This document shows positions 3,155 to 57,770 of a DNA stretch of 64,000 bases, one piece after another; position 1 is the first letter of the stretch; the number at the start of each line of letters is the position of its first letter. The DNA is from Eledone cirrhosa (Eukaryota). The notes beneath the pieces were generated by a model. It made no database searches, was not told the DNA's origin, and saw nothing but the letters and a program-made list of their open reading frames with translations. A program made the translations under genes and the position numbers. Location of the stretch: assembly GCA_964016885.1 (NCBI GenBank), contig OZ024742.1, positions 186,620,001 through 186,684,000 of the forward strand. Reading direction: 5' to 3'.

Positions 3155-3163
3155 CTTACCAAT

Positions 3164-6100: not shown

Positions 6101-6588
6101 GTGCTACCGGGGGGCACTGCCGGTTCGGGATAAACTCTACAGGCACGGAAGTGCTGTCAGACGGACCTGCCCAAGATGCGCACAGAACGACGAAACCGTT
6201 CTGCACGCACTTGTCCAATATCCGTGCATTACTGACTTGTGGAGTTATGTCGAACAGCTATTGTCGCGTGTGGAACGAATCCGGCTATCGGCCGAGTCCA
6301 TAGTGAAGATCGAGCCGCCACCTTCCTTAGGTCAGGAAGAGCAGGACATTTTCCTCTGTCTGGTGGCAGTTGCGAAAGAGATTATATGGTGGACCAGGTT
6401 GAATGGACTAAAGACAGAGACTTTTCTCTTCGGCCAATCCCTCATCACTTTCTTCAAGTTTCACCTGGAAAGGAGGGTGAGGGGGGAGAGAGAAGTGTTG
6501 CCCCCCCCCCAGTACATTTGCTAAAAGGTGGGTGAATGTGGCGAGAATGGCTCGTGTGAATGGGCCTACTCTGACCATGCGCCTATAG
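3164..6588 (+). pseudogene. Family B ORF2 (APE endonuclease + reverse transcriptase), disrupted
   Basis: APE motifs (SLNVRGL, VSETR, GDWN, SDH) and RT motifs (KSPGLDGLP, LDQSKAFDRVDH, QGCPLS, YADD); frameshift near 5410, TAA at 5652-5654, frameshift in the C-run near 6501-6510. Confidence 0.9.
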
Positions 6589-7106
6589 GCTGGCTAACTT
6601 GAAAAGAGGGGTGCTCTCCTGGGTGCCCTAGAAGCGCAGGGTGGTTCAGGATTGGTGGTGTACCCGAATCACGCCAGGGTCGACCACCCCCTATCGGGGA
6701 ATTTATTTTGTTATATTTATGCATAGTTTATTTTATATTTTTATATTTTCATTGTTAAATTAGTCTTGCCATTGTGCACTTTTATTCGACCTTATTGTAA
6801 ACCCCCACTGTCCCTGTCTTTGTATTGTCCCCTACATGTCGGCCCTTGTGGCTAATAAATGAAATCATTATTATTATTATTATTATTATTATTGAATGCC
6901 ATGGTTGACGGAGGCTCGGCTCTGTAAGGTATAGTAATTTTTAACCGTTAAAACAATTGTAAATTGTTTAAAACTTGAACCAAATTGTTGATAAAGACAC
7001 CCTCCTCCTCGTGAGAGGGGTCTTTCTGTCCGTTATTTGGCCCTTCGGGGTTAAATAACCAGTTATTGGGGTTTTGTACCCAAAATTTCATTTTAAACAA
7101 AAAAAC

Positions 7107-9203: not shown

Positions 9204-9238
9204 GTGGTCTTTCCCATTTTTTCCACTCTATTTTAAAC

Positions 9239-12200
9239 ATGACCTCACTCAGAATAGGCAGCATAAATGCGCGTGGCTTGGGGTCGTCATGGAAGCAGGG
9301 TCACCTGCTCAACGACCTCAGGTCACTAAACATAGATGTAGTGGCCATCAGCGAGACCAGAATCTCCGAAGCACGGGCCTTCGCACCGATCTTCGGCGGC
9401 TACGATGTGTACGCATCTCCCAGCCGTCCTGGATCGGGTGGAGGAGTTGCTGTGCTTTTTCGGAGAGGTTTGGATCTCGCCATACGGGCCATCTTCCTGG
9501 ACCCAGAGGGTAAGCTGGTGGTGCTGGACGTGACCAGCGGAGACGGGCAAGCTTTCAGGCTAGTGGCCGTCTATGCCCCGACAGGAGCAGGGCGGCCTGA
9601 TTTCTTCCGGCGTCTGGAGACCTTTCTTGGAACGTCCCGCTCTTTAGTGTTAGTGGGCGACTGGAACGGGATCTTAGATGCACGCTGGGACTGTGTGGGA
9701 TTAGCGGATAGGGGTGGAGGGTGCAAGAGCCTCACCAACCTGCTCAGGCGTTTTGAACTGTCTGACAGGTACCGATTGGATTTCCCGAATGTGCCAATGT
9801 GGACTTGGACAAACCGCATAGGGTCATCCAGATCATATCTAGATAGAGTATTTTGTAGGGAAATAGATAGGTCTAGCATAGGCTGTCCACAATTCAAGAT
9901 AGTCAGCTACACGGACCACAAATTCGTGACCTGTGTGCTTGACTTAGATAGGCTTCATAGACGAGGACCCGGCTACTGGAAGCTAAACGCGTCCTTACCA
10001 GCGCGCAAGGCCTACAGAGACCGGATTAGCGAACTAGTTAAGCGGGCGTTGACGGGGGCCATCGTCAACAACAAGTGGTGGTTTGCTCTGAAAAGAGCGA
10101 TTAGAATAGAATCGATTAGGTTTAGTAAGGCTTTAGCAATAGAGAAAAATAGAGCAGAGGGAGAACTAGTTAGAAAATTAGACGAGGCGCTTAGCAAAGG
10201 CATTGCGACCGACGTGCTTGCGGCGAAATTGGCCCTTGACCAATTCTTCAATGCAAAGCACGAAGGCTGCGTTGTCAGAGCTAGGGTGCGTGCTCTCAGA
10301 CACGAGGGGACGAAAGCCGTTCAATGGGCCCGAGTGGCGGAGGCGCGTCGTGGCAACAAAGCCACGATCCGGTCTTTGGTGGACCACGACGGGCGCATGC
10401 TACTCGATCCCGGGCAAATGTGTGAAGCTTTTCAGCGACACTTCGCTCAGCTGTTCGGGGGCAGCGGGGGGCCGGGTAGAGGGATGGACTTTAGTGTCTA
10501 CCTCGACGGACTGCCGCGGCTCTCGGCCACTGAGGCGAGGTGTTGCGAAAAGCCGATAACAGCCGCTGAAGTACGGGAGGCAATGACTGGCTGCACAAGG
10601 GGTAAATCGCCTGGTTTGGATGGTCTGCCCTATGAACTTTACGTACAGATGCCAGACTTGTTCGGAGGCCTCTTGGCGGACGTCTACTGCAACTGGCAAC
10701 AGAACGGGAGAATTCCCAGTTCTGTGAGCCGAGGAGCGGTGGCACTGCTGAGAAAGGATCCGAACAAGGGGGATAACATAGACAATTTCCGGCCCATAAC
10801 TCTGCTAAACACAGAGTTTAAGATTTTGGCCAAGGTGCTAGCAAAGAGGTTGGCGCTTGTCGTTGGTGGTCTGGTGGGAGAGGCGCAGACATGCGCCATT
10901 CCCGACAGATCCATCCACGACAACCTCCACCTCATGCGATACATCGTAGAGAGGGTAGCTAGGGAACCTGGCACGGGTGGGTCCTTGATCAATTTAGATC
11001 AGTCGAAAGCTTTCGATAGGGTCGACCATCGTTACCTAGCGGCAGTCCTGAGGGCGGCTGGCTTTGGGCCCGTCTTCAGAGGCTGGATCGCTGCCATGCA
11101 CAGCGACATCTGCTCTGTGGTGAGAGTGAACGGTCACCTGTCGGAACCGTTCAACATCATGCGCTCGGTCCGCCAAGGATGTCCCCTCTCGTCCCTCTTG
11201 TACGTATTGACTCTCGAGCCATTACTGCACAAACTGGAGACGTTGAGGGGAGTCCCGCGAGAACTAGGATGCGGAAGATCCGTGTCAGCATATGCGGACG
11301 ATGTCACCGTAGTGGTGTCGAACGCCAAACACATCGAGGCGATCGGCACTACACTAAGAGAATACGAAGCGGTGACAGGAGCAATGATCAACCAGGAAAA
11401 GTCAGTGGGCCTGCAGCTCGGCACCTGGAGAGGCAGGTCCATGCCGTCCAACAGCGTCGTCGGGCGCTGGACGGACGGACCGGTTAAATTGCTAGGGGTC
11501 TGGTTCGGTCCGGACCTCCAGACGGACAAAAACTGGGACGAGGTGACGAGCAGGGTGGCTTCTCTCACCCAGAAATGGGCGGAGAGGAAGCTATCCCTGA
11601 AAGGTCGAGCGGAGGTGGCTAACGCGTACATCGCGTCTGTCATCTGCTACCGCCTAACCGTCGTACCTTGTCCTAAGCCTCGCCTGACTGCGCTGGAGCG
11701 TTTGCTCTTTCGCTTTTTGTGGAAGGGACGTGCTCCGATGGTCAGGCGGTCCATCTGTTGTCAACACCCGCTACGTGGAGGGCTGGGCATGCCGTGGCTG
11801 ATGATGCGCAGGCACGCGCTCAGGCTACGACATCTCCACCTCTTCCTCGACGGTGATCAGGTGTGGTCGCCGTTTGCTAGACGCGTTTTTCCCCAGCTCG
11901 TTTCCTTGACGGAGCTGCAGTCCTGGGTCAAGCGAAGACCGAGAGGGAGCGCCTGGAGACTGGAATGTCTTCAGGCGCTCACAGCCCTCGACCAATCGGG
12001 CAATGTGATCGGTGGAAACTCCACCTCGGCGTTCTATAGAGGATTAGTGGAGGGGAAGAGCGACGACGTACTTGGGGAAACTCTAGGCGTCGACGAAAAT
12101 CAACTAGCCAATCTCTTCGGAAGAACTTTCGGGCCAGGGCCTATGGACAACTTCCAGAAATCTCTGGCCTGGCAGTGCTACCGAGGAGCCTTGCCAGTTC

Positions 12201-12658
12201 GGGATAAACTCTACAGGCATGGAGGTGCCGTCAGCCGGGCATGTCCGAGATGCGCGCAGGGCGACGAAACCGTCCTGCACGCACTCGTCCAGTGTCCGAA
12301 AATTGCTGACTTGTGGGTTTATGTCGAACACCTGCTGTCGCGTTTAGGACGGATCCAGCTATCATCTGAGTCTATCGTGAGGATTGCCCCGCCCTCCTCC
12401 TTTAGCCGGGAAGGGCAGGCAGTTTTTATCTGTCTGGTGGCCATGGCGAAAGAGATAGTATGGTGGACACGTTTGAAAGGGCTGAAGACGAGCACTTACC
12501 TCTTCGGTGATGCTCTGATTGACTTTTTCAAATTTCATTTGAAAAGGAAAATCAGAGTAGAGAAGGAAGTGCTCTCTTCCCAGCATTTTGTTGAAAGATG
12601 GGTGAGAGAAGCAAGAATGGCCCGAGTGAATGGGCCGACTCTGAGTATATATCTGTAA
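9239..12658 (+). CDS. LINE ORF2p, 1139 aa: APE endonuclease, RT, C-terminal Cys/His motif (Tx1/L1 clade)
   Basis: SINARGL, ISETR, VYAP, GDWN, YLDR, TDH (APE); NFRPITLLN, LDQSKAFDRVDH, QGCPLS, YADD (RT); GGLG and CPRC..ETVLHALVQC. Confidence 0.97.
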   Translation: MTSLRIGSINARGLGSSWKQGHLLNDLRSLNIDVVAISETRISEARAFAPIFGGYDVYASPSRPGSGGGVAVLFRRGLDLAIRAIFLDPEGKLVVLDVTSGDGQAFRLVAVYAPTGAGRPDFFRRLETFLGTSRSLVLVGDWNGILDARWDCVGLADRGGGCKSLTNLLRRFELSDRYRLDFPNVPMWTWTNRIGSSRSYLDRVFCREIDRSSIGCPQFKIVSYTDHKFVTCVLDLDRLHRRGPGYWKLNASLPARKAYRDRISELVKRALTGAIVNNKWWFALKRAIRIESIRFSKALAIEKNRAEGELVRKLDEALSKGIATDVLAAKLALDQFFNAKHEGCVVRARVRALRHEGTKAVQWARVAEARRGNKATIRSLVDHDGRMLLDPGQMCEAFQRHFAQLFGGSGGPGRGMDFSVYLDGLPRLSATEARCCEKPITAAEVREAMTGCTRGKSPGLDGLPYELYVQMPDLFGGLLADVYCNWQQNGRIPSSVSRGAVALLRKDPNKGDNIDNFRPITLLNTEFKILAKVLAKRLALVVGGLVGEAQTCAIPDRSIHDNLHLMRYIVERVAREPGTGGSLINLDQSKAFDRVDHRYLAAVLRAAGFGPVFRGWIAAMHSDICSVVRVNGHLSEPFNIMRSVRQGCPLSSLLYVLTLEPLLHKLETLRGVPRELGCGRSVSAYADDVTVVVSNAKHIEAIGTTLREYEAVTGAMINQEKSVGLQLGTWRGRSMPSNSVVGRWTDGPVKLLGVWFGPDLQTDKNWDEVTSRVASLTQKWAERKLSLKGRAEVANAYIASVICYRLTVVPCPKPRLTALERLLFRFLWKGRAPMVRRSICCQHPLRGGLGMPWLMMRRHALRLRHLHLFLDGDQVWSPFARRVFPQLVSLTELQSWVKRRPRGSAWRLECLQALTALDQSGNVIGGNSTSAFYRGLVEGKSDDVLGETLGVDENQLANLFGRTFGPGPMDNFQKSLAWQCYRGALPVRDKLYRHGGAVSRACPRCAQGDETVLHALVQCPKIADLWVYVEHLLSRLGRIQLSSESIVRIAPPSSFSREGQAVFICLVAMAKEIVWWTRLKGLKTSTYLFGDALIDFFKFHLKRKIRVEKEVLSSQHFVERWVREARMARVNGPTLSIYL

Positions 12659-13154
12659 ACTAAAGGTGGAAAACTGGGAGAGGGCACTTGCCTTGGTGGT
12701 CAGGGTCATTGTGGCTTTTTACTGGGCTTTCTCCACAAATGTCCCTCCGAAGTCTCCCCCATATTGGGGAATTTTTCATTGTTATTTTCATTGTTATTTT
12801 TGTTACATCCTCTGTTTTTGTTTTTTTACACGCAGAAATGCCCATTTGTACCGTCCTGCATTGTCCTGCACTGTCCTTAATGTCTACTTTATGTAAACCC
12901 TTGTGGTTAATAAAGAAATCATTATTATTATTATTATTATTGAATGCCATGGTTGACGGAGGCTCGGCTCTGTAAGGTATAGTAATTTTTAACCGTTAAA
13001 ACAATTGTAAATTGTTTAAAACTTGAACCAAATTGTTGATAAAGACACCCTCCTCCTCGTGAGAGGGGTCTTTCTGTCCGTTATTTGGCCCTTCGGGGTT
13101 AAATAACCAGTTATTGGGGTTTTGTACCCAAAATTTCATTTTAAACAAAAAAAC

Positions 13155-15266
13155 ATGGCTACGAAAAAGAAATTTCATACGTCATTCCCACTCATTCCGT
13201 CTTCTTCTTCCTCAATCATCACTACAGCAGAGAGAAGATTGTCTCTCTCCCTCCCTTCTTTAAATGTGTCTCTCTCCCTCCCTTCTCTTTCGCAAGTGAC
13301 GAAAGAAAAGAAAAGTCTCGTGCAAAGCGTGCAAGGTTTCTCCACGACGACGACGACAGCGACGAAACAGGTGTGCGGGAAATACGAAAACCCAGTTCAT
13401 TCGTCTGACGTCAGGAATAATAGCAGTAGCAGCCGTAATAACAACAGCAACAGTGACAATGAAAACAACAGTAGCAGCCGCAACAGCATCACCAGCAGCA
13501 TAAACAACAACAGCATTAGCAACAGCAACACCAACAACAACCACAGCAACAGCGGCGGAGGCAGTAGTCGTAGTACCTGCAGCAACAACAAAAGTACCAG
13601 CAGCTCTGACGACAACAACAACAGCAGAGAAAAACCAATCTCATTTGCAGGTATTGCGAAAAACTTGGAAACAATCCTCATAACAAATGAGGAATTAGAG
13701 GAAGCGAAGAAGATGGTGACAAAGAACGGACACCGAGCAATCTGCAAGGCAGCGAAAAATTTTTTCGAAACCCAAGAGCACTGTACGGTCACGTACCGTA
13801 CAGTAAGTACAAAATCCCGTAGGGTGGAAAGAGCCACAGAGGCCCAAATACAAAAAGCCTTGGGGTCTGTGTGGCAGAGGAAAACGCACATCACCCGAGG
13901 CAAAAAAAAAAAAAAAAAAAAATACGCCACCGTAGACGTACTTTTTGCCACACCCCAGGAGGCAAAGGTCCAATCAGTAGTGACCCTAAGGAGCGAGGAA
14001 ATGGTGTTGGTGCCCTCCTACTGCGGGCAAAAAATTGTGAGGGTCAAACTGACCCACGTCCCCCCCGGAATGACCCCTTCTTGGCTGGCCGCGTCTGTCC
14101 TCGTCGGAATCGAGGACAAAACAACTGTACTGCAAGTACAGAAAAAAGTAAGAGAAGATTGGGTCGGCTCCTCCATTGAGATGCTAATCCAAACCAACCA
14201 GGAGTGCATCGAAGCTATCCCGGATGTGATAGACTTCGATAACGGCACTCAACTGCCCATAAGTGTTGAGGGCAAACGCCCGAAATGCTTTCGCTGTGGA
14301 TCGAAGACTCACCTCAGGGCCTTCTGCAACGAGAAGACCCTGAGAAAGGAGAAAACCCCCCTCCTTCCGAATCCGGCTCCACGGCTACCAGCAACAGGAC
14401 AAGCGGCAACCAGGAACGATAGGTCCGTGGTACCCATACCCACGCCACGGAAATCAAAAACAGCAGCAGCAGTGGAAATATTAACAACAACAACAGCAAT
14501 ACCAAATGCAGCTGCAACAGAGACTCCAGTGCAAACATCACCAACAACAACAAGTGAAAGAGTGGAGCTGGTACCCCTCCCCGACCTCACAGAATCAGAC
14601 ATGGAGTGTGAGGTGGGAGAGGGATGGCAAAAGGTCGCAAGAAGGCACAAACGCAGAAGCAGCGCATCGTCGCCTTTGAAAAGAGAGGAAAGAAATGAGA
14701 AAAGGGTAAAGTCTACTGCAAAGAGACCCACAGCAGCAACAACACCAACACCATCACCACCCACACTAGCACCACCATCACCACCGGCGACAACCCCACC
14801 GCCAACAACACCTTCAACACCACCACCACAAGCACCAACATCGCAAACACAACAACAAAACACACACACCCAGCAACAACGACAAGAAAATAGTAGAACC
14901 ACACCCCACCCCAAGAAAAACAAATGCACGGCAATAAATACACACAACAAGAAACTAATGACTTACATAATTGAACACACAGACATTTCACAACAGGACT
15001 ACATAATACCAGCACCAATCAAAACGCCAACTAACATAAGACTGCTAAAAATAGCACAGAAACAATACACAAACATTAAAACGAAATTCCCCAACGCAGT
15101 TGGTGATTTCAGGGACCTAGGAGGAACCATCAATCGAAGAGTATACTCAGACATTCTCTTAGAAGAGCCGACGACCAGCCGAAGGGACGATTCAACGGTC
15201 CCTTCACCAGACGATCAAGTGAAAAGGGATGTAAAAACCATCCCTCCTCTACCAAAAGTACGGTAA
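13155..15266 (+). CDS. LINE ORF1p (copy 3; in-frame +5 Lys)
   Basis: Near-identical to 7107..9203; A6 run expanded to A21 at 13902-13922. Confidence 0.9.
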   Translation: MATKKKFHTSFPLIPSSSSSIITTAERRLSLSLPSLNVSLSLPSLSQVTKEKKSLVQSVQGFSTTTTTATKQVCGKYENPVHSSDVRNNSSSSRNNNSNSDNENNSSSRNSITSSINNNSISNSNTNNNHSNSGGGSSRSTCSNNKSTSSSDDNNNSREKPISFAGIAKNLETILITNEELEEAKKMVTKNGHRAICKAAKNFFETQEHCTVTYRTVSTKSRRVERATEAQIQKALGSVWQRKTHITRGKKKKKKKYATVDVLFATPQEAKVQSVVTLRSEEMVLVPSYCGQKIVRVKLTHVPPGMTPSWLAASVLVGIEDKTTVLQVQKKVREDWVGSSIEMLIQTNQECIEAIPDVIDFDNGTQLPISVEGKRPKCFRCGSKTHLRAFCNEKTLRKEKTPLLPNPAPRLPATGQAATRNDRSVVPIPTPRKSKTAAAVEILTTTTAIPNAAATETPVQTSPTTTSERVELVPLPDLTESDMECEVGEGWQKVARRHKRRSSASSPLKREERNEKRVKSTAKRPTAATTPTPSPPTLAPPSPPATTPPPTTPSTPPPQAPTSQTQQQNTHTQQQRQENSRTTPHPKKNKCTAINTHNKKLMTYIIEHTDISQQDYIIPAPIKTPTNIRLLKIAQKQYTNIKTKFPNAVGDFRDLGGTINRRVYSDILLEEPTTSRRDDSTVPSPDDQVKRDVKTIPPLPKVR

Positions 15267-15301
15267 GTGGTCTTTCCCATCTTTTCCACTCTATTTTAAA
15301 C

Positions 15302-18300
15302 ATGACCTCACTCAGAATAGGCAGCATAAATGCGCGTGGCTTGGGGTCGTCATGGAAGCAGGGTCACCTGCTCAACGACCTCAGGTCACTAAACATAGAT
15401 GTAGTGGCCATCAGCGAGACCAGAATCTCCGAAGCACGGGCCTTCGCACCGATCTTCGGCGGCTACGATGTGTACGCATCTCCCAGCCGTCCTGGATCCG
15501 GTGGAGGAGTTGCTGTGCTTTTTCGGAGAGGTTTGGATCTCGCCATACGGGCCATCTTCCTGGACCCAGAGGGTAAGCTGGTGGTGCTGGACGTGACCAG
15601 CGGAGACGGGCAAGCTTTCAGGCTAGTGGCCGTCTATGCCCCGACGGGAGCAGGGCGGCCTGATTTCTTCCGGCGTCTGGAGACCTTTCTTGGAACGTCC
15701 CGCTCTTTAGTGTTAGTGGGCGACTGGAACGGGATCTTAGATGCACGCTGGGACTGTGTGGGATTAGCGGATAGGGGTGGAGGGTGCAAGAGCCTCACCA
15801 ACCTGCTCAGGCGTTTTGAACTGTCTGACAGGTACCGATTGGATTTCCCGAATGTGCCAATGTGGACTTGGACAAACCGCATAGGGTCATCCAGATCATA
15901 TCTAGATAGAGTATTTTGTAGGGAAATAGATAGGTCTAGCATAGGCTGTCCACAATTCAAGATAGTCAGCTACACGGACCACAAATTCGTGACCTGTGTG
16001 CTTGACTTAGATAGGCTTCATAGACGAGGACCCGGCTACTGGAAGCTAAACGCGTCCTTACCAGCGCGCAAGGCCTACAGAGACCGGATTAGCGAACTAG
16101 TTAAGCGGGCGTTGACGGGGGCCATCGTCAACAACAAGTGGTGGTTTGCTCTGAAAAGAGCGATTAGAATAGAATCGATTAGGTTTAGTAAGGCTTTAGC
16201 AATAGAGAAAAATAGAGCAGAGGGAGAACTAGTTAGAAAATTAGACGAGGCGCTTAGCAAAGGCATTGCGACCGACGTGCTTGCGGCGAAATTGGCCCTT
16301 GACCAATTCTTCAATGCAAAGCACGAAGGCTGCGTTGTCAGAGCTAGGGTGCGTGCTCTCAGACACGAGGGGACGAAAGCCGTTCAATGGGCCCGAGTGG
16401 CGGAGGCGCGTCGTGGCAACAAAGCCACGATCCGGTCTTTGGTGGACCACGACGGGCGCATGCTACTCGATCCCGGGCAAATGTGTGAAGCTTTTCAGCG
16501 ACACTTCGCTCAGCTGTTCGGGGGCAGCGGGGGGCCGGGTAGAGGGATGGACTTTAGTGTCTACCTCGACGGACTGCCGCGGCTCTCGGCCACTGAGGCG
16601 AGGTGTTGCGAAAAGCCGATAACAGCCGCTGAAGTACGGGAGGCAATGACTGGCTGCACAAGGGGTAAATCGCCTGGTTTGGATGGTCTGCCCTATGAAC
16701 TTTACGTACAGATGCCAGACTTGTTCGGAGGCCTCTTGGCGGACGTCTACTGCAACTGGCAACAGAACGGGAGAATTCCCAGTTCTGTGAGCCGAGGAGC
16801 GGTGGCACTGCTGAGAAAGGATCCGAACAAGGGGGATAACATAGACAATTTCCGGCCCATAACTCTGCTAAACACAGAGTTTAAGATTTTGGCCAAGGTG
16901 CTAGCAAAGAGGTTGGCGCTTGTCGTTGGTGGTCTGGTGGGAGAGGCGCAGACATGCGCCATTCCCGACAGATCCATCCACGACAACCTCCACCTCATGC
17001 GATACATCGTAGAGAGGGTAGCTAGGGAACCTGGCACGGGTGGGTCTTTGATCAATTTAGATCAGTCGAAAGCTTTCGATAGGGTCGACCATCGTTACCT
17101 AGCGGCAGTCCTGAGGGCGGCTGGCTTTGGGCCCGTCTTCAGAGGCTGGATCGCTGCCATGCACAGCGACATCTGCTCTGTGGTGAGAGTGAACGGTCAC
17201 CTGTCGGAACCGTTCAACATCATGCGCTCGGTCCGCCAAGGATGTCCCCTCTCGTCCCTCTTGTACGTATTGACTCTCGAGCCATTACTGCACAAACTGG
17301 AGACGTTGAGGGGAGTCCCGCGCGAACTAGGATACGGAAGATCCGTGTCAGCATATGCGGACGATGTCACCGTAGTGGTGTCGAACGCCAAACACATCGA
17401 GGCGATCGGCACTACACTAAGAGAATACGAAGCGGTGACAGGAGCAATGATCAACCAGGAAAAGTCAGTGGGCCTGCAGCTCGGCACCTGGAGAGGCAGG
17501 TCCATGCCGTCCAACAGCGTCGTCGGGCGCTGGACGGACGGACCGGTTAAATTGCTAGGGGTCTGGTTCGGTCCGGACCTCCAGACGGACAAAAACTGGG
17601 ACGAGGTGACGAGCAGGGTGGCTTCTCTCACCCAGAAATGGGCGGAGAGGAAGCTATCCCTGAAAGGTCGAGCGGAGGTGGCTAACGCGTACATCGCGTC
17701 TGTCATCTGCTACCGCCTAACCGTCGTACCTTGTCCTAAGCCTCGCCTGACTGCGCTGGAGCGTTTGCTCTTTCGCTTTTTGTGGAAGGGACGTGCTCCG
17801 ATGGTCAGGCGGTCCATCTGTTGTCAACACCCGCTACGTGGAGGGCTGGGCATGCCGTGGCTGATGATGCGCAGGCACGCGCTCAGGCTACGACATCTCC
17901 ACCTCTTCCTCGACGGTGATCAGGTGTGGTCGCCGTTTGCTAGACGCGTTTTTCCCCAGCTCGTTTCCTTGACGGAGCTGCAGTCCTGGGTCAAGCGAAG
18001 ACCGAGAGGGAGCGCCTGGAGACTGGAATGTCTTCAGGCGCTCACAGCCCTCGACCAATCGGGCAATGTGATCGGTGGAAACTCCACCTCGGCGTTCTAT
18101 AGAGGATTAGTGGAGGGGAAGAGCGACGACGTACTTGGGGAAACTCTAGGCGTCGACGAAAATCAACTAGCCAATCTCTTCGGAAGAACTTTCGGGCCAG
18201 GGCCTATGGACAACTTCCAGAAATCTCTGGCCTGGCAGTGCTACCGAGGAGCCTTGCCAGTTCGGGATAAACTCTACAGGCATGGAGGTGCCGTCAGCCG

Positions 18301-18721
18301 GGCATGTCCGAGATGCGCGCAGGGCGACGAAACCGTCCTGCACGCACTCGTCCAGTGTCCGAAAATTGCTGACTTGTGGGTTTATGTCGAACACCTGCTG
18401 TCGCGTTTAGGACGGATCCAGCTATCATCTGAGTCTATCGTGAGGATTGCCCCGCCCTCCTCCTTTAGCCGGGAAGGGCAGGAAGTTTTTATCTGTCTGG
18501 TGGCCATGGCGAAAGAGATAGTATGGTGGACACGTTTGAAAGGGCTGAAGACGAGCACTTACCTCTTCGGTGATGCTCTGATTGACTTTTTCAAATTTCA
18601 TTTGAAAAGGAAAATCAGAGTAGAGAAGGAAGTGCTCTCTTCCCAGCATTTTGTTGAAAGATGGGTGAGAGAAGCAAGAATGGCCCGAGTGAATGGGCCG
18701 ACTCTGAGTATATATCTGTAA
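15302..18721 (+). CDS. LINE ORF2p, 1139 aa (copy 3)
   Basis: I see two differences from the copy-2 protein (ELGCGR>ELGYGR, EGQAVF>EGQEVF); all APE and RT motifs intact. Confidence 0.97.
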   Translation: MTSLRIGSINARGLGSSWKQGHLLNDLRSLNIDVVAISETRISEARAFAPIFGGYDVYASPSRPGSGGGVAVLFRRGLDLAIRAIFLDPEGKLVVLDVTSGDGQAFRLVAVYAPTGAGRPDFFRRLETFLGTSRSLVLVGDWNGILDARWDCVGLADRGGGCKSLTNLLRRFELSDRYRLDFPNVPMWTWTNRIGSSRSYLDRVFCREIDRSSIGCPQFKIVSYTDHKFVTCVLDLDRLHRRGPGYWKLNASLPARKAYRDRISELVKRALTGAIVNNKWWFALKRAIRIESIRFSKALAIEKNRAEGELVRKLDEALSKGIATDVLAAKLALDQFFNAKHEGCVVRARVRALRHEGTKAVQWARVAEARRGNKATIRSLVDHDGRMLLDPGQMCEAFQRHFAQLFGGSGGPGRGMDFSVYLDGLPRLSATEARCCEKPITAAEVREAMTGCTRGKSPGLDGLPYELYVQMPDLFGGLLADVYCNWQQNGRIPSSVSRGAVALLRKDPNKGDNIDNFRPITLLNTEFKILAKVLAKRLALVVGGLVGEAQTCAIPDRSIHDNLHLMRYIVERVAREPGTGGSLINLDQSKAFDRVDHRYLAAVLRAAGFGPVFRGWIAAMHSDICSVVRVNGHLSEPFNIMRSVRQGCPLSSLLYVLTLEPLLHKLETLRGVPRELGYGRSVSAYADDVTVVVSNAKHIEAIGTTLREYEAVTGAMINQEKSVGLQLGTWRGRSMPSNSVVGRWTDGPVKLLGVWFGPDLQTDKNWDEVTSRVASLTQKWAERKLSLKGRAEVANAYIASVICYRLTVVPCPKPRLTALERLLFRFLWKGRAPMVRRSICCQHPLRGGLGMPWLMMRRHALRLRHLHLFLDGDQVWSPFARRVFPQLVSLTELQSWVKRRPRGSAWRLECLQALTALDQSGNVIGGNSTSAFYRGLVEGKSDDVLGETLGVDENQLANLFGRTFGPGPMDNFQKSLAWQCYRGALPVRDKLYRHGGAVSRACPRCAQGDETVLHALVQCPKIADLWVYVEHLLSRLGRIQLSSESIVRIAPPSSFSREGQEVFICLVAMAKEIVWWTRLKGLKTSTYLFGDALIDFFKFHLKRKIRVEKEVLSSQHFVERWVREARMARVNGPTLSIYL

Positions 18722-18981
18722 ACTAAAGGTGGAAAACTGGGAGAGGGCACTTGCCTTGGTGGTCAGGGTCATTGTGGCTTTTTACTGGGCTTTCTCCACA
18801 AATGTCCCTCCGAAGTCTCCCCCATATTGGGGAATTTTTCATTGTTATTTTCATTGTTATTTTTGTTACATCCTCTGTTTTTGTTTTTTTACACGCAGAA
18901 ATGCCCATTTGTACCGTCCTGCATTGTCCTGCACTGTCCTTAATGTCTACTTTATGTAAACCCTTGTGGTTAATAAAGAAA

Positions 18982-19040
<59 letters not shown>

Positions 19041-49072: not shown

Positions 49073-50303
49073 GACTGTGGAAAGCTTCGCTATTTACACA
49101 GTAATTGCAAAAGCAGGCCATTTCGATATTTTTTGTCAGACAAATGGAAAACTCACCACCGAAACCGACGGAGGCACATTTAAGTTATATTATTATATAT
49201 ATTGATAGGAAAAGCATTCCAACTGAAGAAAACCTGCCAAAGATGTATCAAGGACAGATGTATCAAGGACAACCTAAGTAGTGGAATAATAACATTGCTT
49301 TCATTATGTTTCTTCATATTTTAATGTGTCTGTGTCTGTGTTACCCATTTCTAGCTAATGTTTCTATTATTTGAACAATCTGTCGTTACCAATTTAATAT
49401 TTCCTTTTAGTGTTCAATTTAAAATTTGAAAAAATATTTCAAATCCATTTATCTTCACTATGATGCGATAGTTATTGTGCACTTTTAAATTGTACATATA
49501 TAAATACATACGTATATACATATATGCATGCATACATAAGCATGCATACATAAGCATGTATGTACATACATGCTTATGTATACATGCATATATGTATACA
49601 CACATACATTCATGCATACACACATACATATATACATACATGCATACATACGTACATACATACATGCATAGACAAATATTTACATGCATACGTACAAACA
49701 TATTATATACATGCATACATACACACACACACACACATACTCACACACATATATATATATACATATATACATACATATATACATAGTTACATACATACAC
49801 ACATATATATACACATACATATACACACATACTCACATACACACATACATATAGATACATACAGACATACACATACATATACACATACATACATGCAATC
49901 ATGCTTACATACATACATGCATTCACAGATACATATGTACGTACATACGTACATACGTAGAAACGTACATACGTACATACATACATGCATACATACATAT
50001 ATACGTACAAACATCCGTACATACATGCATAGACACATGCATGCACGCATACATATATACATACAGAGATACATACATACATACATAACAAATTTGAAAT
50101 GTAGTAGTCCAAAAATTTCCCTACCCTAAATATTCTTTATATAGGGATCAACTATTACTATAGTTTTTACGTTGGATAACTCTACTTCAAATTTTTCCAG
50201 TGTACCTTCACACCGCAGACACACATACATAATACATACATGTATATATATATATATATATACGATATTAAATAAATGGAAACTATATTTATAAAACCAT
50301 ATT

Positions 50304-50369
50304 TATTTCATTATATATATTTCAGGGATATCATATTAAAAATATGGTATGCCTTCATCAGACAAAATA
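50304..50369 (-). ncRNA. Minimal type I hammerhead motif
   Basis: Reverse complement of 51310-51375. Confidence 0.7.
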
Positions 50370-50621
50370 CAATATAAACAGTCTTATAAATAGATAGATT
50401 TGACATACCTTACACTTCAACTTCCATTTAAAAAGTTGATTTGGTAGTGAAAAATGTTAGGGACAGTTATAGAGAAAAAAAGAAAGAAAGAAAGAAAGCG
50501 AAGAAAAAGAAGAAATGCATGCAACGAAAAACAGAGAGAGATAGATATAGAGAGATAGATAGAGAGAAGAAATTCATGTAAAGAAAAAACAGAGAGAGAT
50601 AGATAGAGAGAGAAAAAACAG

Positions 50622-50658
<37 letters not shown>

Positions 50659-51309
50659 AAAGAGAGAGAGAGAGAAAAAATAGAGAGAGATAGATATAGA
50701 TAGAGATAGAGAGAGAGAAAAATAGGTAGTTGGGCACCAGTTGAATGACGTATCAATGATATATTTATTTATTTATTTATTTATTTAGTTCTAGTATTAA
50801 GGTAGAGAGAGATATATGTGGTTAGGAGAGAAAACAGCGTCTATGTAACGGCTGTTTTCTCTCCTAACCACATATATCTCTCTCTACCTTAATACTAGAA
50901 CTAAATAAATAAATAAATAAATAAATATATCATTGATACGTCATTCAACTGGTGCCCAACTACCTATTTTTCTCTCTCTCTATCTCTATCTATATCTATC
51001 TCTCTCTATTTTTCTCTCTCTCTCTCTTTTCTCTCTCTCTCTCTCTCTATCTATCTCCCTCTGTTTTTTCTCTCTCTATCTATCTCTCTCTGTTTTTTCT
51101 TTACATGAATTTCTTCTCTCTATCTATCTCTCTATATATCTCTCTCTCTGTTTTTCGTTGCATGCATTTCTTCTTTTTCTTCGCTTTCTTTCTTTCTTTC
51201 TTTTTTTTTTCTCTATAACTGTCCCTAACATTTTTCACTACCAAATCAACTTTTTAAATGGAAGTTGAAGTGTAAGGTATGTCAAATCTATATAAGACTG
51301 TTTATATTG

Positions 51310-51375
51310 TATTTTGTCTGATGAAGGCATACCATATTTTTAATATGATATCCCTGAAATATATATAATGAAATA
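51310..51375 (+). ncRNA. Minimal type I hammerhead motif
   Basis: TATTTTGT-CTGATGA-AGG..CATATT/AATATG..CCT-GAAA-TATATA-TA-ATGAAATA; stem I pairs over 8 bp including GU. Confidence 0.7.
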
Positions 51376-51533
51376 AATATGGTTTTATAAATATAGTTTC
51401 CATTTATTTAATATCGTAAATATACTCCAAATACTTGTTGAGTGCTTTTATATCAGTTATAAATATTTACTCGTTGCAACCCAACAATTTAAATAAAACT
51501 TTGCATATATATATATATATACTCACTCCGTCA

Positions 51534-51658
<125 letters not shown>

Positions 51659-51669
51659 TAGATAGATAT

Positions 51670-53212
51670 GTTTCTTTACTAACGACAAGGGCGCACAAGA
51701 AAAGGGGACAAAACAAAGACACAATCCGGGGATTTTACATACAATCGTATAAAAATATGAAACAAACAAATATAACAATCGAAATCCCCAATAGTGGGGA
51801 GGCGCCACAAATGGGTTGTTTAATACCCCGTAGATAGAACAACCCTCAACTTCAGGAGCGTGTTGTGCAAGTGCTCCTTTCTTCCTTTTATTCTCTTCTT
51901 CAACCTACAGGTTTATATACAGAGAAGGCCCAATCACTCGGGCTATTTTTGCCACATTCACCCACCTTTCAGTAAATTTACTGGGGTGCAGTGCCTCTCT
52001 CTCCACTCTGATTCTCCTTCTAAAGTGGTACCTAAAGAGGAGAATGAGTTGTTGTCCGGAGAGAAAGGCATCTGTCCTCAGTCCTCTCAATCTCGTCCAC
52101 CATATAACCTCTTCCACCATAACCACTATACAGAGGAAAATCGCCTCTCTTTCGTTTTTGAAAGAAGTTGGCGGTTTGATCCTTACTATGGACTCGGCAG
52201 TCAACTGGATTTGTCCCATACGCGACAGCAGTTGTTCTGCATAGTTCCACAAGTCGGTTACGCCTGGGTGGTGTACAATTGCGTGCAAGACAGTTTCAGT
52301 GTCCTGCCCGCATCTTGGACACGTCCTCTTGGAAGGATCCTGCCTGTATATCTTGTCAGGAACTGGTAGAGCACTGCCAGGCCAGGGACCTCTGGAGGTT
52401 GTCCATAGGTCTCGGACGGAAATTCCTACCAAACTGACTGGTGAGTTCGACGCCTAGAGTCTCTCCGAGCACGTCGTCGCCATTGTGAATTACTAACCCC
52501 CTATAGAATGTCGAAGTGGAGTCTCCACTGATTGGTGTGCCCGCTTAACAGAGGACTGTGAGCGCCTGAGCGCATTCAATGTGCCAGGCGCCCATCTTCT
52601 TCGGTATCTACTTGACCCAGGACTGCAGCTCCGTCAGCGAGACAAGCTGCGGGATGGCATGTCTCACAAACGGTGCCCACATCGGTTGGGGGTCAGTGAG
52701 GAATACCTGTAGATGCCGTAGCCCTAGCGCATCTTTGCACATCATCAGCATTCCCAGCCCTCCGTTGGAAGGGTGCTGACAGCAGACGGATCTCCTCACC
52801 AGTGGAGCCTGCTTCTTCCAAACGAATTCGAAGAAAATGCGCTCCATCTTGGTGAGGTACACGGGGACAAGGCACGACGGTCAAGCGGTAGTAGATGGCG
52901 GACGCTATCCTTTCAAGGATAGTTTTCACTCTGCCCACTTCTGGGTGAGCGCAATACCTTGGCCGTGACCTCGTTCCAGTTTTCCTCCACCTGGAGGCCG
53001 GACCGAATCAGACACCGAGCAATTTCACCGGTCCGTCCGTCCAGCATCCGATGACGCTGTCGGACGGGATCGGTTTGCCTCTCCACGTTCCGAGTTGCAA
53101 ACCGACAGACTTGTCCGGGTTCAGTTTTGCTCCTTCAGCCTTTCGTATTCCTGCAGTAAGTTGCCGATCGCCCCAATTTCAGAGGTTTCCCACACCATTA
53201 GTGTCACGTCGT
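51670..53212 (-). mobile_element. Tx1-clade LINE family D, 5'-truncated and degenerate
   Basis: Starts at the DD of the YADD motif (DVTLMVWETSEIGAIG); YYRLTVVPCP, LVSLTELQSWVK, CPRCGQDTETVLH; 3' end CCCTTGTCGTTAGTAAAGAAAC running into ATCT/TC repeats. Confidence 0.9.
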
Positions 53213-53660
53213 AGATTGACGGAGTGAGTAAGCAATCCCAAATTAAATCGGGGGTAACTAGAGTTCAAAAGGTAGTCAATGCATTAGTAGAGTATAAAAA
53301 TCACGAAGCCATTCTATATTAAATGATAATAGCTTTTCCATGATGTCAACAAAAAATTCTATGTGTACATGTTATACCTTAATTGGTATAAATTATTGTT
53401 TTGTCTTCTACATACTCCACTGGACGGCGCTTTGGATTGTGTCAGATGCTGTGACACCAGATGGACCTGCAGTACCGTTGGTAGAGGGTCAAAACTGCCA
53501 AAGTCCATCTCAACGGTTGAAGACCCTGGAGTTCTGTGTCTTTCATTTGAATTTTTATTTTCAAAAAATATTTATTTAAGGTTTCCCCTTCAAAAGAATT
53601 GTTTTCCATTTTGCCTTGTTTTCGTTAGTTGTCTCGTCCTCTCTTTGTTAATTTTCCTAA

Positions 53661-53706
<46 letters not shown>

Positions 53707-53710
<4 letters not shown>

Positions 53711-54723
53711 AATTAATATATCTACCGACATATGTATACAGATGCATACCTACACTAGCAGATATATATGTTTTGTCTTAGTAACTTTGTAGTTCTATGC
53801 AGGGGAATGCAGAACAATTATATGAAAGACGTAAATAAGAAAGTTATGAAAATTGACTTACTAAAATTTCACTCCAACTAATTAGTTTCTGTAAGGGGAT
53901 AAATACAGTTATGTAATACCTGTAGAGAAGCCTTACGTCATCAGGAAGTCTATTCTCAGCTAAGCCACCAGGCAATGCGAGGACACTGGAAGCTTATATA
54001 ACAATAATTCAGTGGACTGAAAAATTCGCTGCCTCCTTGGTCAAGTGGCAAATTCAAAAGAATTAATCACGTGACACTGAGGTTAACCAGCTTGGAGTGG
54101 GGGTGCTATTAAGACAGAGCCTAGCCACTACTATCAGTCACAGTAGTAATTTGGCAAATTTTGCTCAACAAATAATTTGGAGAAGAATATAAAGAATTAA
54201 TATATCTACCGACATATGTATACAGATGCATACCTACGCTAGCAGATATATATGTTTTGTCTTAGTAACTTTGTAGTTCTATGCAGGGGAATGCAGAATA
54301 ATTATATGAAAGACGTAAATAAGAAAGTTATGAAAATTGACTTACTTACTAAAATTTCACTCCAACTAATTAGTTTCTGTAAGGGGATAAATACAGTTAT
54401 GTAATACCTGTAGAGAAGCCTTACGTCATCAGGGAGTCTATTCTCAGCTAAGCCACCAGGCAATGCGGGGACACTGGAAGCTTATATAACAATAATTCAC
54501 TGGAAGCTTATATAACAATAGTCCACTGAATTATTGTTATATAAGCTTCCAGTGTCCCCGCATTGCCTGGTGGCTTAGCTGAGAATAGACTCCCTGATGA
54601 CGTAAGGCTTCTCTACAGGTATTACATAACTGTATTTATCCCCTTACAGAAACTAATTAGTTGGAGTGAAATTTTAGTAAGTAAGTCAATTTTCATAACT
54701 TTCTTATTTACGTCTTTCATATA
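53707..54723. mobile_element. Hammerhead-containing 484-bp unit: full copy, partial tandem copy, then an inverted partial copy (Penelope/retrozyme-like)
   Basis: Direct repeats start at 53707 and 54191; inverted arm 54520-54723; hammerheads at 53871-53949 (-), 54359-54437 (-) and 54589-54667 (+). Confidence 0.85.
54589..54667 (+). ncRNA. Type I hammerhead motif with long stem II
   Basis: ACTCC-CTGATGA-c-GTAAGG...CCTTAC-a-GAAA-CTAATTAG-TT-GGAGT; helix III is the palindrome ACTAATTAGT. Confidence 0.75.
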
Positions 54724-54733
54724 TATATATATA

Positions 54734-56974
54734 TGAATATAGACATAGAATATTCGAAAATATTCTGTATGTTTATAATAAACATTTTGAAGACCTAATC
54801 GCTATAGAATAGAATACGTCACGTATTACAATTAGATTCTCGATAAAAGCAAGGGAAGTAATCTACGCGTTTCATTCTTGTTAGAAATCATCAGGACTAC
54901 ATATCCAGTGCTTTTATCGAGAATGACACAGCTAGAGACTTATAGAATACTTAGCTGTGTACAGGAACTGGTTTGAAAGAGCGGTTGCCGGTCCGGCAGA
55001 AATTAGAAATTGGAATAAATGCTCTGAAATAGCGATATATATGTGAATATAGACATAGAATATTCGAAAATATTCTGTATGTTTATAATAAACATTTTGA
55101 AGACCTAATCGCTATAGAATAGAATACGTCACGTATTACAATTAGATTCTCGATAAAAGCAAGGGAAGTAATCTACGCGTTTCATTCTTGTTAGAAATCA
55201 TCAGGACTACATATCCAGTGCTTTTATCGAGAATGACACAGCTAGAGACTTATAGAATACTTAGCTGTGTACAGGAACTGGTTTGAAAGAGCGGTTGCCG
55301 GTCCGGCAGAAATTAGAAATTGGAATAAATGCTCTGAAATAGCGATATATATGTGAATATAGACATAGAATATTCGAAAATATTCTGTATGTTTATAATA
55401 AACATTTTGAAGACCTAATCGCTATAGAATAGAATACGTCACGTATTACAATTAGATTCTCGATAAAAGCAAGGGAAGTAATCTACGCGTTTCATTCTTG
55501 TTAGAAATCATCAGGACTACATATCCAGTGCTTTTATCGAGAATGACACAGCTAGAGACTTATAGAATACTTAGCTGTGTACAGGAACTGGTTTGAAAGA
55601 GCGGTTGCCGGTCCGGCAGAAATTAGAAATTGGAATAAATGCTCTGAAATAGCGATATATATGTGAATATAGACATAGAATATTCGAAAATATTCTGTAT
55701 GTTTATAATAAACATTTTGAAGACCTAATCGCTATAGAATAGAATACGTCACGTATTACAATTAGATTCTCGATAAAAGCAAGGGAAGTAATCTACGCGT
55801 TTCATTCTTGTTAGAAATCATCAGGACTACATATCCAGTGCTTTTATCGAGAATGACACAGCTAGAGACTTATAGAATACTTAGCTGTGTACAGGAACTG
55901 GTTTGAAAGAGCGGTTGCCGGTCCGGCAGAAATTAGAAATTGGAATAAATGCTCTGAAATAGCGATATATATGTGAATATAGACATAGAATATTCGAAAA
56001 TATTCTGTATGTTTATAATAAACATTTTTCAGAGCATTTATTCCAATTTCTAATTTCTGCCGGACCGGCAACCGCTCTTTCAAACCAGTTCCTGTACACA
56101 GCTAAGTATTCTATAAGTCTCTAGCTGTGTCATTCTCGATAAAAGCACTGGATATGTAGTCCTGATGATTTCTAACAAGAATGAAACGCGTAGATTACTT
56201 CCCTTGCTTTTATCGAGAATCTAATTGTAATACGTGACGTATTCTATTCTATAGCGATTAGGTCTTCAAAATGTTTATTATAAACATACAGAATATTTTC
56301 GAATATTCTATGTCTATATTCACATATATATCGCTATTTCAGAGCATTTATTCCAATTTCTAATTTCTGCCGGACCGGCAACCGCTCTTTCAAACCAGTT
56401 CCTGTACACAGCTAAGTATTCTATAAGTCTCTAGCTGTGTCATTCTCGATAAAAGCACTGGATATGTAGTCCTGATGATTTCTAACAAGAATGAAACGCG
56501 TAGATTACTTCCCTTGCTTTTATCGAGAATCTAATTGTAATACGTGACGTATTCTATTCTATAGCGATTAGGTCTTCAAAATGTTTATTATAAACATACA
56601 GAATATTTTCGAATATTCTATGTCTATATTCACATATATATCGCTATTTCAGAGCATTTATTCCAATTTCTAATTTCTGCCGGACCGGCAACCGCTCTTT
56701 CAAACCAGTTCCTGTACACAGCTAAGTATTCTATAAGTCTCTAGCTGTGTCATTCTCGATAAAAGCACTGGATATGTAGTCCTGATGATTTCTAACAAGA
56801 ATGAAACGCGTAGATTACTTCCCTTGCTTTTATCGAGAATCTAATTGTAATACGTGACGTATTCTATTCTATAGCGATTAGGTCTTCAAAATGTTTATTA
56901 TAAACATACAGAATATTTTCGAATATTCTATGTCTATATTCACATATATATCGCTATTTCAGAGCATTTATTCC

Positions 56975-56978
<4 letters not shown>
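54734..56978. mobile_element. 310-bp hammerhead monomer array: about 4.2 forward and 3.1 inverted copies (non-LTR retrozyme-like)
   Basis: Period 310 (AGACATAGAA at 54741, 55051, 55361, 55671, 55981); inversion at 56026-56028; flanked by (TA)n. Confidence 0.9.
56156..56198 (+). ncRNA. Type I hammerhead (also 56466-56508 and 56776-56818 on +; 54858-54900, 55168-55210, 55478-55520, 55788-55830 on -)
   Basis: GTAGTC-CTGATGA-tTTCTaacaAGAAt-GAAA-CGCG-TA-GATTAC; stem I extended by ATTCTCGATAAAAGCA/TGCTTTTATCGAGAAT. Confidence 0.8.
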
Positions 56979-57022
<44 letters not shown>

Positions 57023-57137
57023 AATATAGAAATAGCTTCTACAGGAACTAGAAATGTTTCATTCGAAGGAAATCATCATATACTCTGCTATGTATTGAGT
57101 ACCTTGCTAACCCTGGTTTCCTTCTATTGAATCCGGG

Positions 57138-57424: not shown

Positions 57425-57612
57425 GTGGTGGATTGGGAGTAGCGGTAGAGTGTCGGACGCCATGCTTTCCAGCATAGTTACGTCCCTTTATGATCTGAGT
57501 TCAAATCCCGCCGAGGTTGTCTTTGCCTTTCATCCTTACGGGGTCGATAAAATAAAGTACCAGTAATGCACTGGGTGATTGCTGGCCTTGTGCCTAAAGT
57601 AGAAACAATTAT
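57425..57612 (+). mobile_element. SINE type 1
   Basis: Same head, core and tail. Confidence 0.9.
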
Positions 57613-57734: not shown

Positions 57735-57770
57735 TTTCCTGAAGAAGGACTTCTGTCCGAAACGTCAAAA
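57735..57770 (+). ncRNA. Minimal hammerhead-like motif
   Basis: CTGAAGA-a-GGAC-ttct-GTCC-GAAA-CG-TC; stem I is weak. Confidence 0.5.

Follow-up and report, generated by a model that had tools for sequence, protein, structure and literature searches.

How seven identical copies of a 310-nt hammerhead ribozyme unit came to lie within a (TA)n microsatellite of Eledone cirrhosa, four on one strand and three on the other, is the question raised by the locus described here. The window, i.e. the whole stretch of DNA that was analysed, comprises 64,000 nt of contig OZ024742.1 (assembly GCA_964016885.1; positions 186,620,001 to 186,684,000 of the forward strand), and the array occupies its positions 54734–56978. 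The reading that is preferred, with a probability of about two in three, is that the array belongs to a family of young, non-coding, hammerhead-bearing retrozymes of the type without long terminal repeats (non-LTR), whose copies would be written head-to-head into (TA)n by the enzyme of a Penelope-like element (PLE), priming twice on one RNA, probably a monomer circle.

The window array and its genome-wide family

Positions within the unit are given as phases, phase 1 being position 56193 of the window, the first base past the predicted cut. The unit has a period of 310 nt, and no mismatch was found among the units within either arm (54734–56028 and 56027–56978). The description given in an earlier note made from the sequence of the window was confirmed in its anatomical points: seven identical monomers on opposite strands (4.18 and 3.07 units), a TT microhomology between the arms, (TA)n on both flanks, an intact catalytic core with a GUA cleavage site, a palindromic ACGCGU helix III, a perfect 16-bp extension of stem I, and no coding capacity, the longest ATG-initiated open reading frame (ORF) on the circle encoding 30 amino acids (aa). 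The seven hammerheads (CUGAUGA...GAAA-CGCG-UA) begin at 56162, 56472 and 56782 on the plus strand and at the four minus-strand positions listed below. The unit carries a hammerhead on one polarity only, its G+C content is 106/310 (34%), and the arrays are tandem, without terminal repeats. The features of the locus are as follows.

54720–54733 (no strand): (TA)7, left part of the microsatellite target, which doubles as the 3′ flank of a neighbouring family-B hammerhead element (by sequence)
54734–56028 (minus): left arm, made up of 4.18 units of 310 nt without differences; it begins 5′ at phase 76 and stops 3′ at phase 130, the short end, which lacks the tail
54836–54924 (minus): first of four minus-strand hammerheads, whose cores begin at 54894, 55204, 55514 and 55824
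56027–56028 (no strand): TT common to both arms, the head-to-head junction of two 5′-truncated ends
56027–56978 (plus): right arm, made up of 3.07 such units; it begins 5′ at phase 145 and stops 3′ at phase 166, the long end, which includes the tail
56132–56220 (plus): type I hammerhead with 16-bp extended stem I; core at 56162–56168 and 56183–56186, predicted cleavage after 56192; recurs at +310 and +620 (supported by covariation with a sister family)
56942–56951 (plus): short-end start region, phase 130–139, ACAUAUAUAU, complementary to a (TA)n primer; putative first reverse-transcription start site
56952–56978 (plus): tail, phase 140–166, present at only one end of each two-armed insertion; its 3′ end is the putative second start site
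56979–57020 (no strand): (TA)n, right part of the microsatellite target

The distribution of the unit was examined in the animal's own genome (3.0 Gb), in which units and ends were counted as exact matches to patterns. The 27-nt core variant of the window is present in 4,600 exact copies and a less variable 27-nt hairpin in 16,488, so that the units number no fewer than 16,488 and together make up 5 Mb or more. Long ends (phase 165–167 running into (TA)n) gave 1,341 exact matches and short ends (phase 130–139 running into (TA)n) 1,253. The family occupies at least about 1,300 insertions, and the 1,341 long ends show that the dispersal expected by the earlier note is real and that this is not a single-locus satellite. 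Since sporadic differences amount to only 3.8 × 10−4 per base, the family is young and these insertions can be read almost as fresh products.

Pairing of ends by coordinates alone (97 long and 100 short ends listed in the first 218 Mb of contig C1, facing within 16 kb) yielded 64 head-to-head pairs, all of them short/long, with no short/short or long/long combination. A detailed sample of 141 regions (987 kb) was then composed of the window and of C1 loci found by the core pattern, by each of the 100 long ends listed, by 35 short ends that had no partner and, in 4 cases, by the hairpin pattern. This analysis revealed that adjacent arms are arranged head-to-head in 121 of 122 cases, the exception lying inside locus L041, which switches twice and whose outer ends are one short and one long. 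The 121 pairs comprise 107 that are short/long by the limits first set, 7 in which the long end falls at one of the phases 156, 159 and 172, both halves of L041, and 5 that run into an assembly gap or the edge of a region. Each of the 115 complete two-armed insertions has one short and one long 3′ end (short/short 0, long/long 0); the short end lies at phase 126–139 and the other about 20–45 nt beyond it. Single arms numbered 22, some of them next to gaps or region edges.

The (TA)n repeat was found beyond 215 of the 228 3′ ends, and 10 of 114 insertions, in imperfect stretches of the target, are bounded by direct repeats of 11–38 nt, the remainder lying mostly in uninformative (TA)n. Insertions have a median size of 8 units (maximum 48) and arms a median of 3.4 units, with some reaching 45. 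At the 121 junctions the arms overlap by at least 1 nt in 71 cases, are joined bluntly in 18 and are separated by inserted bases in 32. The 5′ junctions fall at phases throughout the unit (chi-square, p = 0.10), as a rule not at the same phase in both arms, and the longer arm is the long-end arm in 40 insertions and the short-end arm in 32. The 5′ ends are random, and the 3′ ends are fixed at the short and long phases. In locus L037 (2899–3170) a GC-rich stretch of 272 nt, unrelated to the unit, lies between the two arms and may stem from a different RNA that was copied while the ends were being joined; no match to it was found in loci L031–L126, the window or Rfam.

Template, priming and the candidate mobiliser

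Comparison of the two arms of each insertion pointed to a common template. Of the array-wide variants seen in the 121 arm pairs, 173 occur in both arms and only 1 is discordant; 25 haplotypes were distinguished among the 55 arrays with a full unit in each arm, nearly all of them uniform array-wide, and two unrelated templates would agree in haplotype about 13.5% of the time. These values indicate that both arms copy the same molecule, or possibly that the cell expresses a single source locus. The template is, moreover, continuous across the cut, since copying does not halt at the cleavage sites: of 242 arms, 228 extend over one site or more, 92 over at least five and one over 45, and 5 of the 242 5′ ends lie within 5 nt of a site (7.8 expected). 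Variants fixed across whole arrays, such as the 2-nt deletion in 20 of 20 units of locus L035, require a one-unit bottleneck, and the minor variants in the stretch covered by both arms are mostly unshared (74, compared to 6 shared). A monomer circle is favoured as the usual template over a linear multimer, at odds of roughly three to one.

Copy numbers, head-to-head order, the short and long 3′ ends, random 5′ ends, shared variants, target duplications and conservation of the fold are established by sequence; the course of events proposed to underlie them is as follows. The array would be transcribed, its hammerheads would cut out 310-nt monomers, and a host ligase or the ribozyme itself would close these into circles. 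A PLE protein with reverse transcriptase (RT) and GIY-YIG activities, probably a dimer, would bind the RNA and nick both (TA)n strands with a stagger. Complementary DNA (cDNA) would be primed from one nick at phase 130–139, a stretch of the RNA able to pair with (TA)n, and from the second nick at phase 156–172. Each RT would then circle the template for between less than 1 and 45 turns, after which the two unfinished ends would be joined head-to-head by microhomology, blunt or insert-bearing end joining. Failure of one priming would leave a single arm, as in the 22 cases seen, and a multimeric template would be used in a minority of events.

The assignment of the mobiliser to the PLEs is well supported by the anatomy of the insertions. 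Those of endonuclease-bearing (EN+) PLEs contain partial tandems, an inverted 5′-truncated copy and a tail of 30–40 bp, often at one end only, with a bias towards (TA)n, and the origin of their tandem and inverted structures was named an open problem (PMC8557442). The 310-nt family shares these features with Neptune, Naiad and Penelope/Poseidon elements (PMC8557442, PMC3846280) and with the anole element PAc (PMC11167929): it combines an inverted 5′-truncated copy and a tail at one end (115/115) with a microsatellite target ((TA)n at 215 of 228 flanks). It differs from autonomous EN+ PLEs in having no ORF for RT and GIY-YIG domains, so that it acts like a non-autonomous passenger, and in its up to 45 tandem units per arm. 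The anole protein cleaves each of the two target strands and extends both, and its start sites are two internal positions downstream of the hammerhead between which the tail lies, much as is proposed here; however, its start site is described as alike on both strands and hammerhead cleavage as unneeded (PMC11167929), whereas in the 310-nt family each site is used exactly once per insertion and the hammerhead appears to be under selection.

A young PLE with an intact ORF of 1,210 codons, encoding an RT-like domain followed by a GIY-YIG-like motif, is resident in the same genome in tandem units of about 4 kb. All 150 scored matches to its endonuclease are identical over 185 aa, i.e. there are at least 150 identical copies, and a first look returned 38,279 candidates. 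The Pfam matches of the PLE proteins are weak (RVT_1, E = 1.7 × 10−4; GIY-YIG, E = 0.009; both under the cut-off), the GIY-YIG motif having been read from the sequence, and a comparison with PDB gave no match under E = 0.05. From its cysteine linker we take the element to be a Neptune. In 20 loci picked for facing or tandem copies, all 17 complete head-to-head pairs are short/long, 3 loci being without a complete pair. Loci L128 and L178–L227 (e.g. L208, 438–8061) show an asparagine-rich insert in the ORF of this PLE, a hammerhead-like motif of its own, and three successive full-length copies head-to-tail; such full-length tandems suggest that its RNA may circularise.

Fragments of at least three other PLE-like families are present in the fetched DNA, and the 310-nt unit gave no significant match to the PLE pieces in loci L031–L126. 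A PLE-like intact ORF of 820 aa with a long-stem hammerhead upstream lies in L074 (5906–8368, minus strand) and is presumably Hydra-like. Loci L033/L121, L117 and L145/L163 contain a GC-rich Neptune-like element, a Poseidon-like fragment and a relative of the L128 family. An arm in L033/L121 faces another PLE, with an assembly gap between the two, and was therefore not counted as a chimera.

Several observations weigh against the proposed course of events. Most of the sampled loci were picked by end pattern and, apart from the window, all lie within the first 223 Mb of a single contig. Comparison of the 310-nt unit with the young PLE gave no significant match (best E = 0.33–0.39), the tail of that PLE is longer (about 45–59 nt), and hammerhead cleavage was dispensable for the anole PLE in vitro (PMC11167929). 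The hammerhead scores 19.2 bits with the Rfam family Hammerhead_HH9 (RF02275; E = 0.009 on 111 nt) and so misses the gathering threshold of 52 bits. The 6 shared minor variants, all in L071, L142 and L093, lie in the same turn of both arms, which a monomer circle cannot give; such in-register sharing shows that the two primings start within one and the same unit, but also that multimers serve as template in some cases. The ratio of 74:6 is itself weakened as an argument by sequencing errors and later mutations among the sporadic variants, and in the long arms of L035 and L077 variants recur in blocks or with a period of 7, which suggests that tandem duplication took place later or that the assembly is in error.

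Some of these data would be expected if the same twin priming by a PLE used a long, linear, uncleaved read-through transcript, the arms being lengthened by unequal crossing-over or slippage and circles being a by-product or absent. The in-register variants and the block patterns agree with such a template, as does L093, where both arms carry two units of one haplotype and then another; the anole PLE used unprocessed RNA in vitro (PMC11167929), and 8 of 9 Xenopus retrozyme dimers did not cleave (preprint 10.64898/2026.07.22.740005). A linear template is nevertheless considered unlikely: variants fixed throughout an array and in both its arms call for the one-unit bottleneck mentioned above, unshared minor variants greatly outnumber the shared ones, arms reach 45 units with a median of 3.4, and the selection on the hammerhead described below would be unexplained if cleavage were irrelevant. 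The earlier note had proposed instead rolling reverse transcription of a circle with a strand switch; a single RT would then write the inverted arm after folding back onto the cDNA it has made or passing to an antisense template. Variants common to both arms and the frequent short microhomology at junctions fit this view, and self-priming on an antisense template has been proposed for inverted PLE junctions (PMC3846280). A fold-back copy cannot exceed the arm copied, however, and either arm may be the longer (40 vs 32); the second arm would, moreover, have to stop at a fixed site every time (115/115), and the junction phases are spread over the unit and mostly unlike between arms. Fixed, different 3′ starts beside the target, these arm lengths and the random junction phase are better fitted by two separately primed copies meeting head-to-head, which makes a strand switch by one enzyme quite improbable. 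What stands of the earlier proposal is a dispersed, young non-LTR retrozyme copied by reverse transcription through the cleavage site.

Still less probable is a (TA)n-targeting long interspersed nuclear element (LINE), e.g. Tx1- or Dong/R4-like, with L1-style twin priming, or spread as a DNA satellite or as extrachromosomal circles. A broken LINE fragment, presumably Tx1-like, does lie in (TA)n within the window (51660–53660, minus strand). Dong-R4 and L1-Tx1 are listed as recently active in Octopus vulgaris (PMC13282606), the relevance of which depends on the host. Both starts of the 310-nt arrays are fixed, however, as in the co-resident PLE. With L1 twin priming, the position of the second start varies. 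A route through DNA only, on the other hand, does not predict selection on sense-strand structure or the sense-strand excess of A>G changes (14, compared to 5 T>C). Finally, it is hardly credible that the inversion is an artefact of assembly or of long-read fold-back: some arrays abut assembly gaps, but a fold-back would mirror both end and flank, and here ends and flanks differ, 121 of 122 adjacencies have the same polarity, and 10 insertions are flanked by target duplications. The inversion is therefore regarded as real.

A stricter form of the preferred reading, held only tentatively and at somewhat less than even odds, is that every array is the product of one reaction, in which a Penelope RT dimer starts at two fixed sites on a single 310-nt circle and each subunit makes up to 45 turns, hammerhead-made circles being obligatory and adenosine-to-inosine (A-to-I) editing founding the lineages. 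If true, this model would explain the one-sided tail and the tandem and inverted structure of PLEs in general.

The hammerhead fold and its conservation

The hammerhead of the array consists of a 6-bp stem I followed by an internal loop and the perfect 16-bp helix, a 4-bp stem II closed by U·U, and the palindromic helix III. The linear monomer folds more stably than shuffled sequences (z = −4.4; 0 of 100 shuffles as stable). Folding of the circular monomer, a check that the earlier note had suggested, also gave a stable structure (z = −4.7), but the minimum-energy fold omits the hammerhead core, and forcing the core costs 6.7 kcal/mol. The U·U pair, which had been entered as a caveat, is a mild one: in axolotl, a U·U-closed retrozyme hammerhead is active, with weak cleavage of the monomer and good cleavage of the dimer (PMC7229834), the same pair closes stem II in 17 other hammerheads of the fetched DNA, and it is replaced by a U-A pair in 26 of the 121 arm pairs. 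The long double-stranded RNA that had been predicted for transcription from either side could be formed only by read-through from a flank, and transcripts starting inside the units would probably run outward.

Array-wide variants, i.e. those with which an array would have been founded, are absent from the 12 core positions in all 121 arm pairs; the commonest affect N7 or loop II or change U·U to U-A. Over 66 hammerhead positions, 1 of 8 array-wide changes is damaging, compared to 21 of 25 sporadic ones (p = 5 × 10−4). When all confident helices are considered, array-wide changes break 2 pairs and keep 9, and sporadic changes break 46 and keep 12 (p = 2 × 10−4). In a sister family of about 321 nt (196/306 positions identical, 64%), all 16 pairs of the extended helix are kept, with 8 two-sided changes, stem II is closed by G-C, and the core pair C3-G8 is jointly replaced by U3-A8; the comparison comprises four rows from two lineages, so the paired changes are not independent samples. 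The hairpins listed in the earlier note are all present in the unit, but ACACAGCTA and AATACG are not kept in the sister-family alignment. Taken together, the genomic evidence suggests that the hammerhead fold is needed for spread and that founding variants spare it. Copies of the sister retrozyme lie in L104 (5660–6480), L046 (1310–1840), L079, L094 and L109, likewise head-to-head with short and long ends.

On the sense strand, array-wide changes include 14 A>G and 5 T>C (p = 0.02; 8 vs 4 among rare variants, p = 0.15), whereas sporadic changes include 10 A>G and 25 T>C (array-wide vs sporadic, Fisher p = 0.002). The array-wide excess fits A-to-I editing or selection for G·U pairs, and the sporadic T>C changes fit RT errors; either reading of the A>G bias implies a sense-strand RNA stage. 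Editing by ADAR was not accepted as a demonstrated cause, because selection for G·U-tolerant changes gives the same excess. In L062 an A>G change appears after four turns of one arm and throughout the other, as editing during copying could give.

Known systems, neighbouring elements and public sequencing runs

In sequence the 310-nt family has the properties of animal non-LTR retrozymes: tandem non-coding units in the range of ~150–450 nt, a GC content below 50%, no LTR, a type I hammerhead (7/7 units of the window), dispersal with target duplications longer than 4 bp where visible, and a stable self-paired monomer. The retrozymes of Acropora millepora, Mytilus galloprovincialis and axolotl (Rtz_331/353) are likewise tandem, non-coding, low in GC and self-paired, with units of 150–450 nt, one hammerhead per unit and thousands of copies (PMC7229834; preprint 10.64898/2026.07.22.740005), and the 310-nt unit resembles axolotl HHR_Amex2 in the U·U that closes the base of its stem II and in a helix III of 2 bp. 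In the available descriptions, however, animal retrozymes form plain tandem arrays, whereas those of the 310-nt family have two arms set head-to-head, and their short and long ends in (TA)n are fixed. Animal retrozymes have been shown to cleave themselves and to form circular RNA; the present family, in contrast, is known from its sequence alone.

Hammerhead viroids and viroid-like circular RNAs resemble the unit in size, lack of coding capacity, compact fold and possession of a hammerhead. Members of the Avsunviroidae type have ribozymes in both polarities and replicate as RNA only, without DNA copies. The term viroid-like, used in the earlier note, does not suit a unit with a hammerhead on one polarity only and 16,488 genomic DNA copies.

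No account of this family, no published octopus retrozyme and no head-to-head retrozyme arrays were found in the literature searched, to which Repbase, most subscription papers and the supplements of PMC7229834 and of the preprint did not belong; the words ribozyme and retrozyme are absent from the available part of an Octopus vulgaris repeat annotation of 2026. The element class is already known, and what the 310-nt family adds is the insertion anatomy, the one-site-each rule and the selection on the ribozyme. Retrozymes have been argued to be non-autonomous PLE derivatives, with the mechanism left open (preprint 10.64898/2026.07.22.740005). Their return to DNA has so far been proposed from co-occurrence and homology of the pseudo-LTR (pLTR), and the present family links this proposal with the problem of tandem and inverted PLE insertions. 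The insertions supply a strict rule, by which an insertion draws once on either of the two start sites and both lie on a single template, and the 310-nt RNA, the (TA)n target and the intact ORF of the co-resident PLE make the model directly testable in vitro. Rolling target-primed reverse transcription that makes multi-kilobase concatemers from a small RNA circle would also be of interest for genome-writing tools.

Other hammerhead elements surround the array. Family B (window positions 53703–54728) has a unit of about 486 nt and three hammerheads (minus strand, 53944 and 54432; plus strand, 54594), arranged head-to-head in (TA)n with two different ends; the 310-nt array is inserted in the (TA)n at the right end of this element. 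A 25-mer of family B has 1,395 exact matches genome-wide, which places the ratio of the 310-nt unit to family B, by exact patterns, at about 12:1. Rfam matches to WsnRNA46 and to microRNA precursors near 54440–54590 were rejected, as they are below threshold and reflect the neighbouring palindrome. Family C (50255–51507; hammerheads at 50361, minus strand, and 51318, plus strand) forms a palindrome of 1.2 kb within (TA)n, one of its ends being short and the other long, and has relatives in L040 and L145. Family D is abundant and short; it occurs in the window (57022–57137, minus strand; one core letter changed) and in L033/L121, L129, L062, L134, L143, L088 and L105, with U·U closing stem II (17 matches outside the 310-nt arrays) and short and long ends at (TA)n.

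At least half of the words of the 310-nt unit were found in 20 public sequencing runs (X1–X20), which come from 16 studies and bear 17 organism labels. The three of these runs that were examined in detail, X12, X10 and X3, each contain one closed 340-nt contig, at a depth of 365, 34 and 10, respectively, with family B pieces at about 1/4 to 1/17 of that depth and a different majority haplotype in each run; closed 340-nt contigs arise equally from tandem DNA. In a Hi-C run labelled as the organism of X12, 0 of 12.8 million reads matched, a test that is valid only if the organism is present in the run, and two other runs labelled organism H contain next to none of the unit's words. The runs containing the unit include no RNA run and are uninformative on expression. 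An infectious RNA was rejected as the source of the multi-organism matches, which most likely represent carry-over of host nucleic acid or related hosts; traces of family B are present too, and some runs with the same label are without the unit's words. Movement of the circle between species, which near-identical sequence under 17 organism labels might suggest, is very unlikely.

Further elements were noted elsewhere in the window. At 57739–57766 (plus strand) there is a hammerhead-like motif that is minimal, as in the pLTRs of PLEs, and whose stem I is poor. A tRNA-derived short interspersed nuclear element at 57480–57570 is one that we take to resemble an octopus element of this kind. The region 3155–19000 (plus strand) contains about three tandem LINE copies spaced 6 kb apart, with ORFs of 875–1,204 aa.

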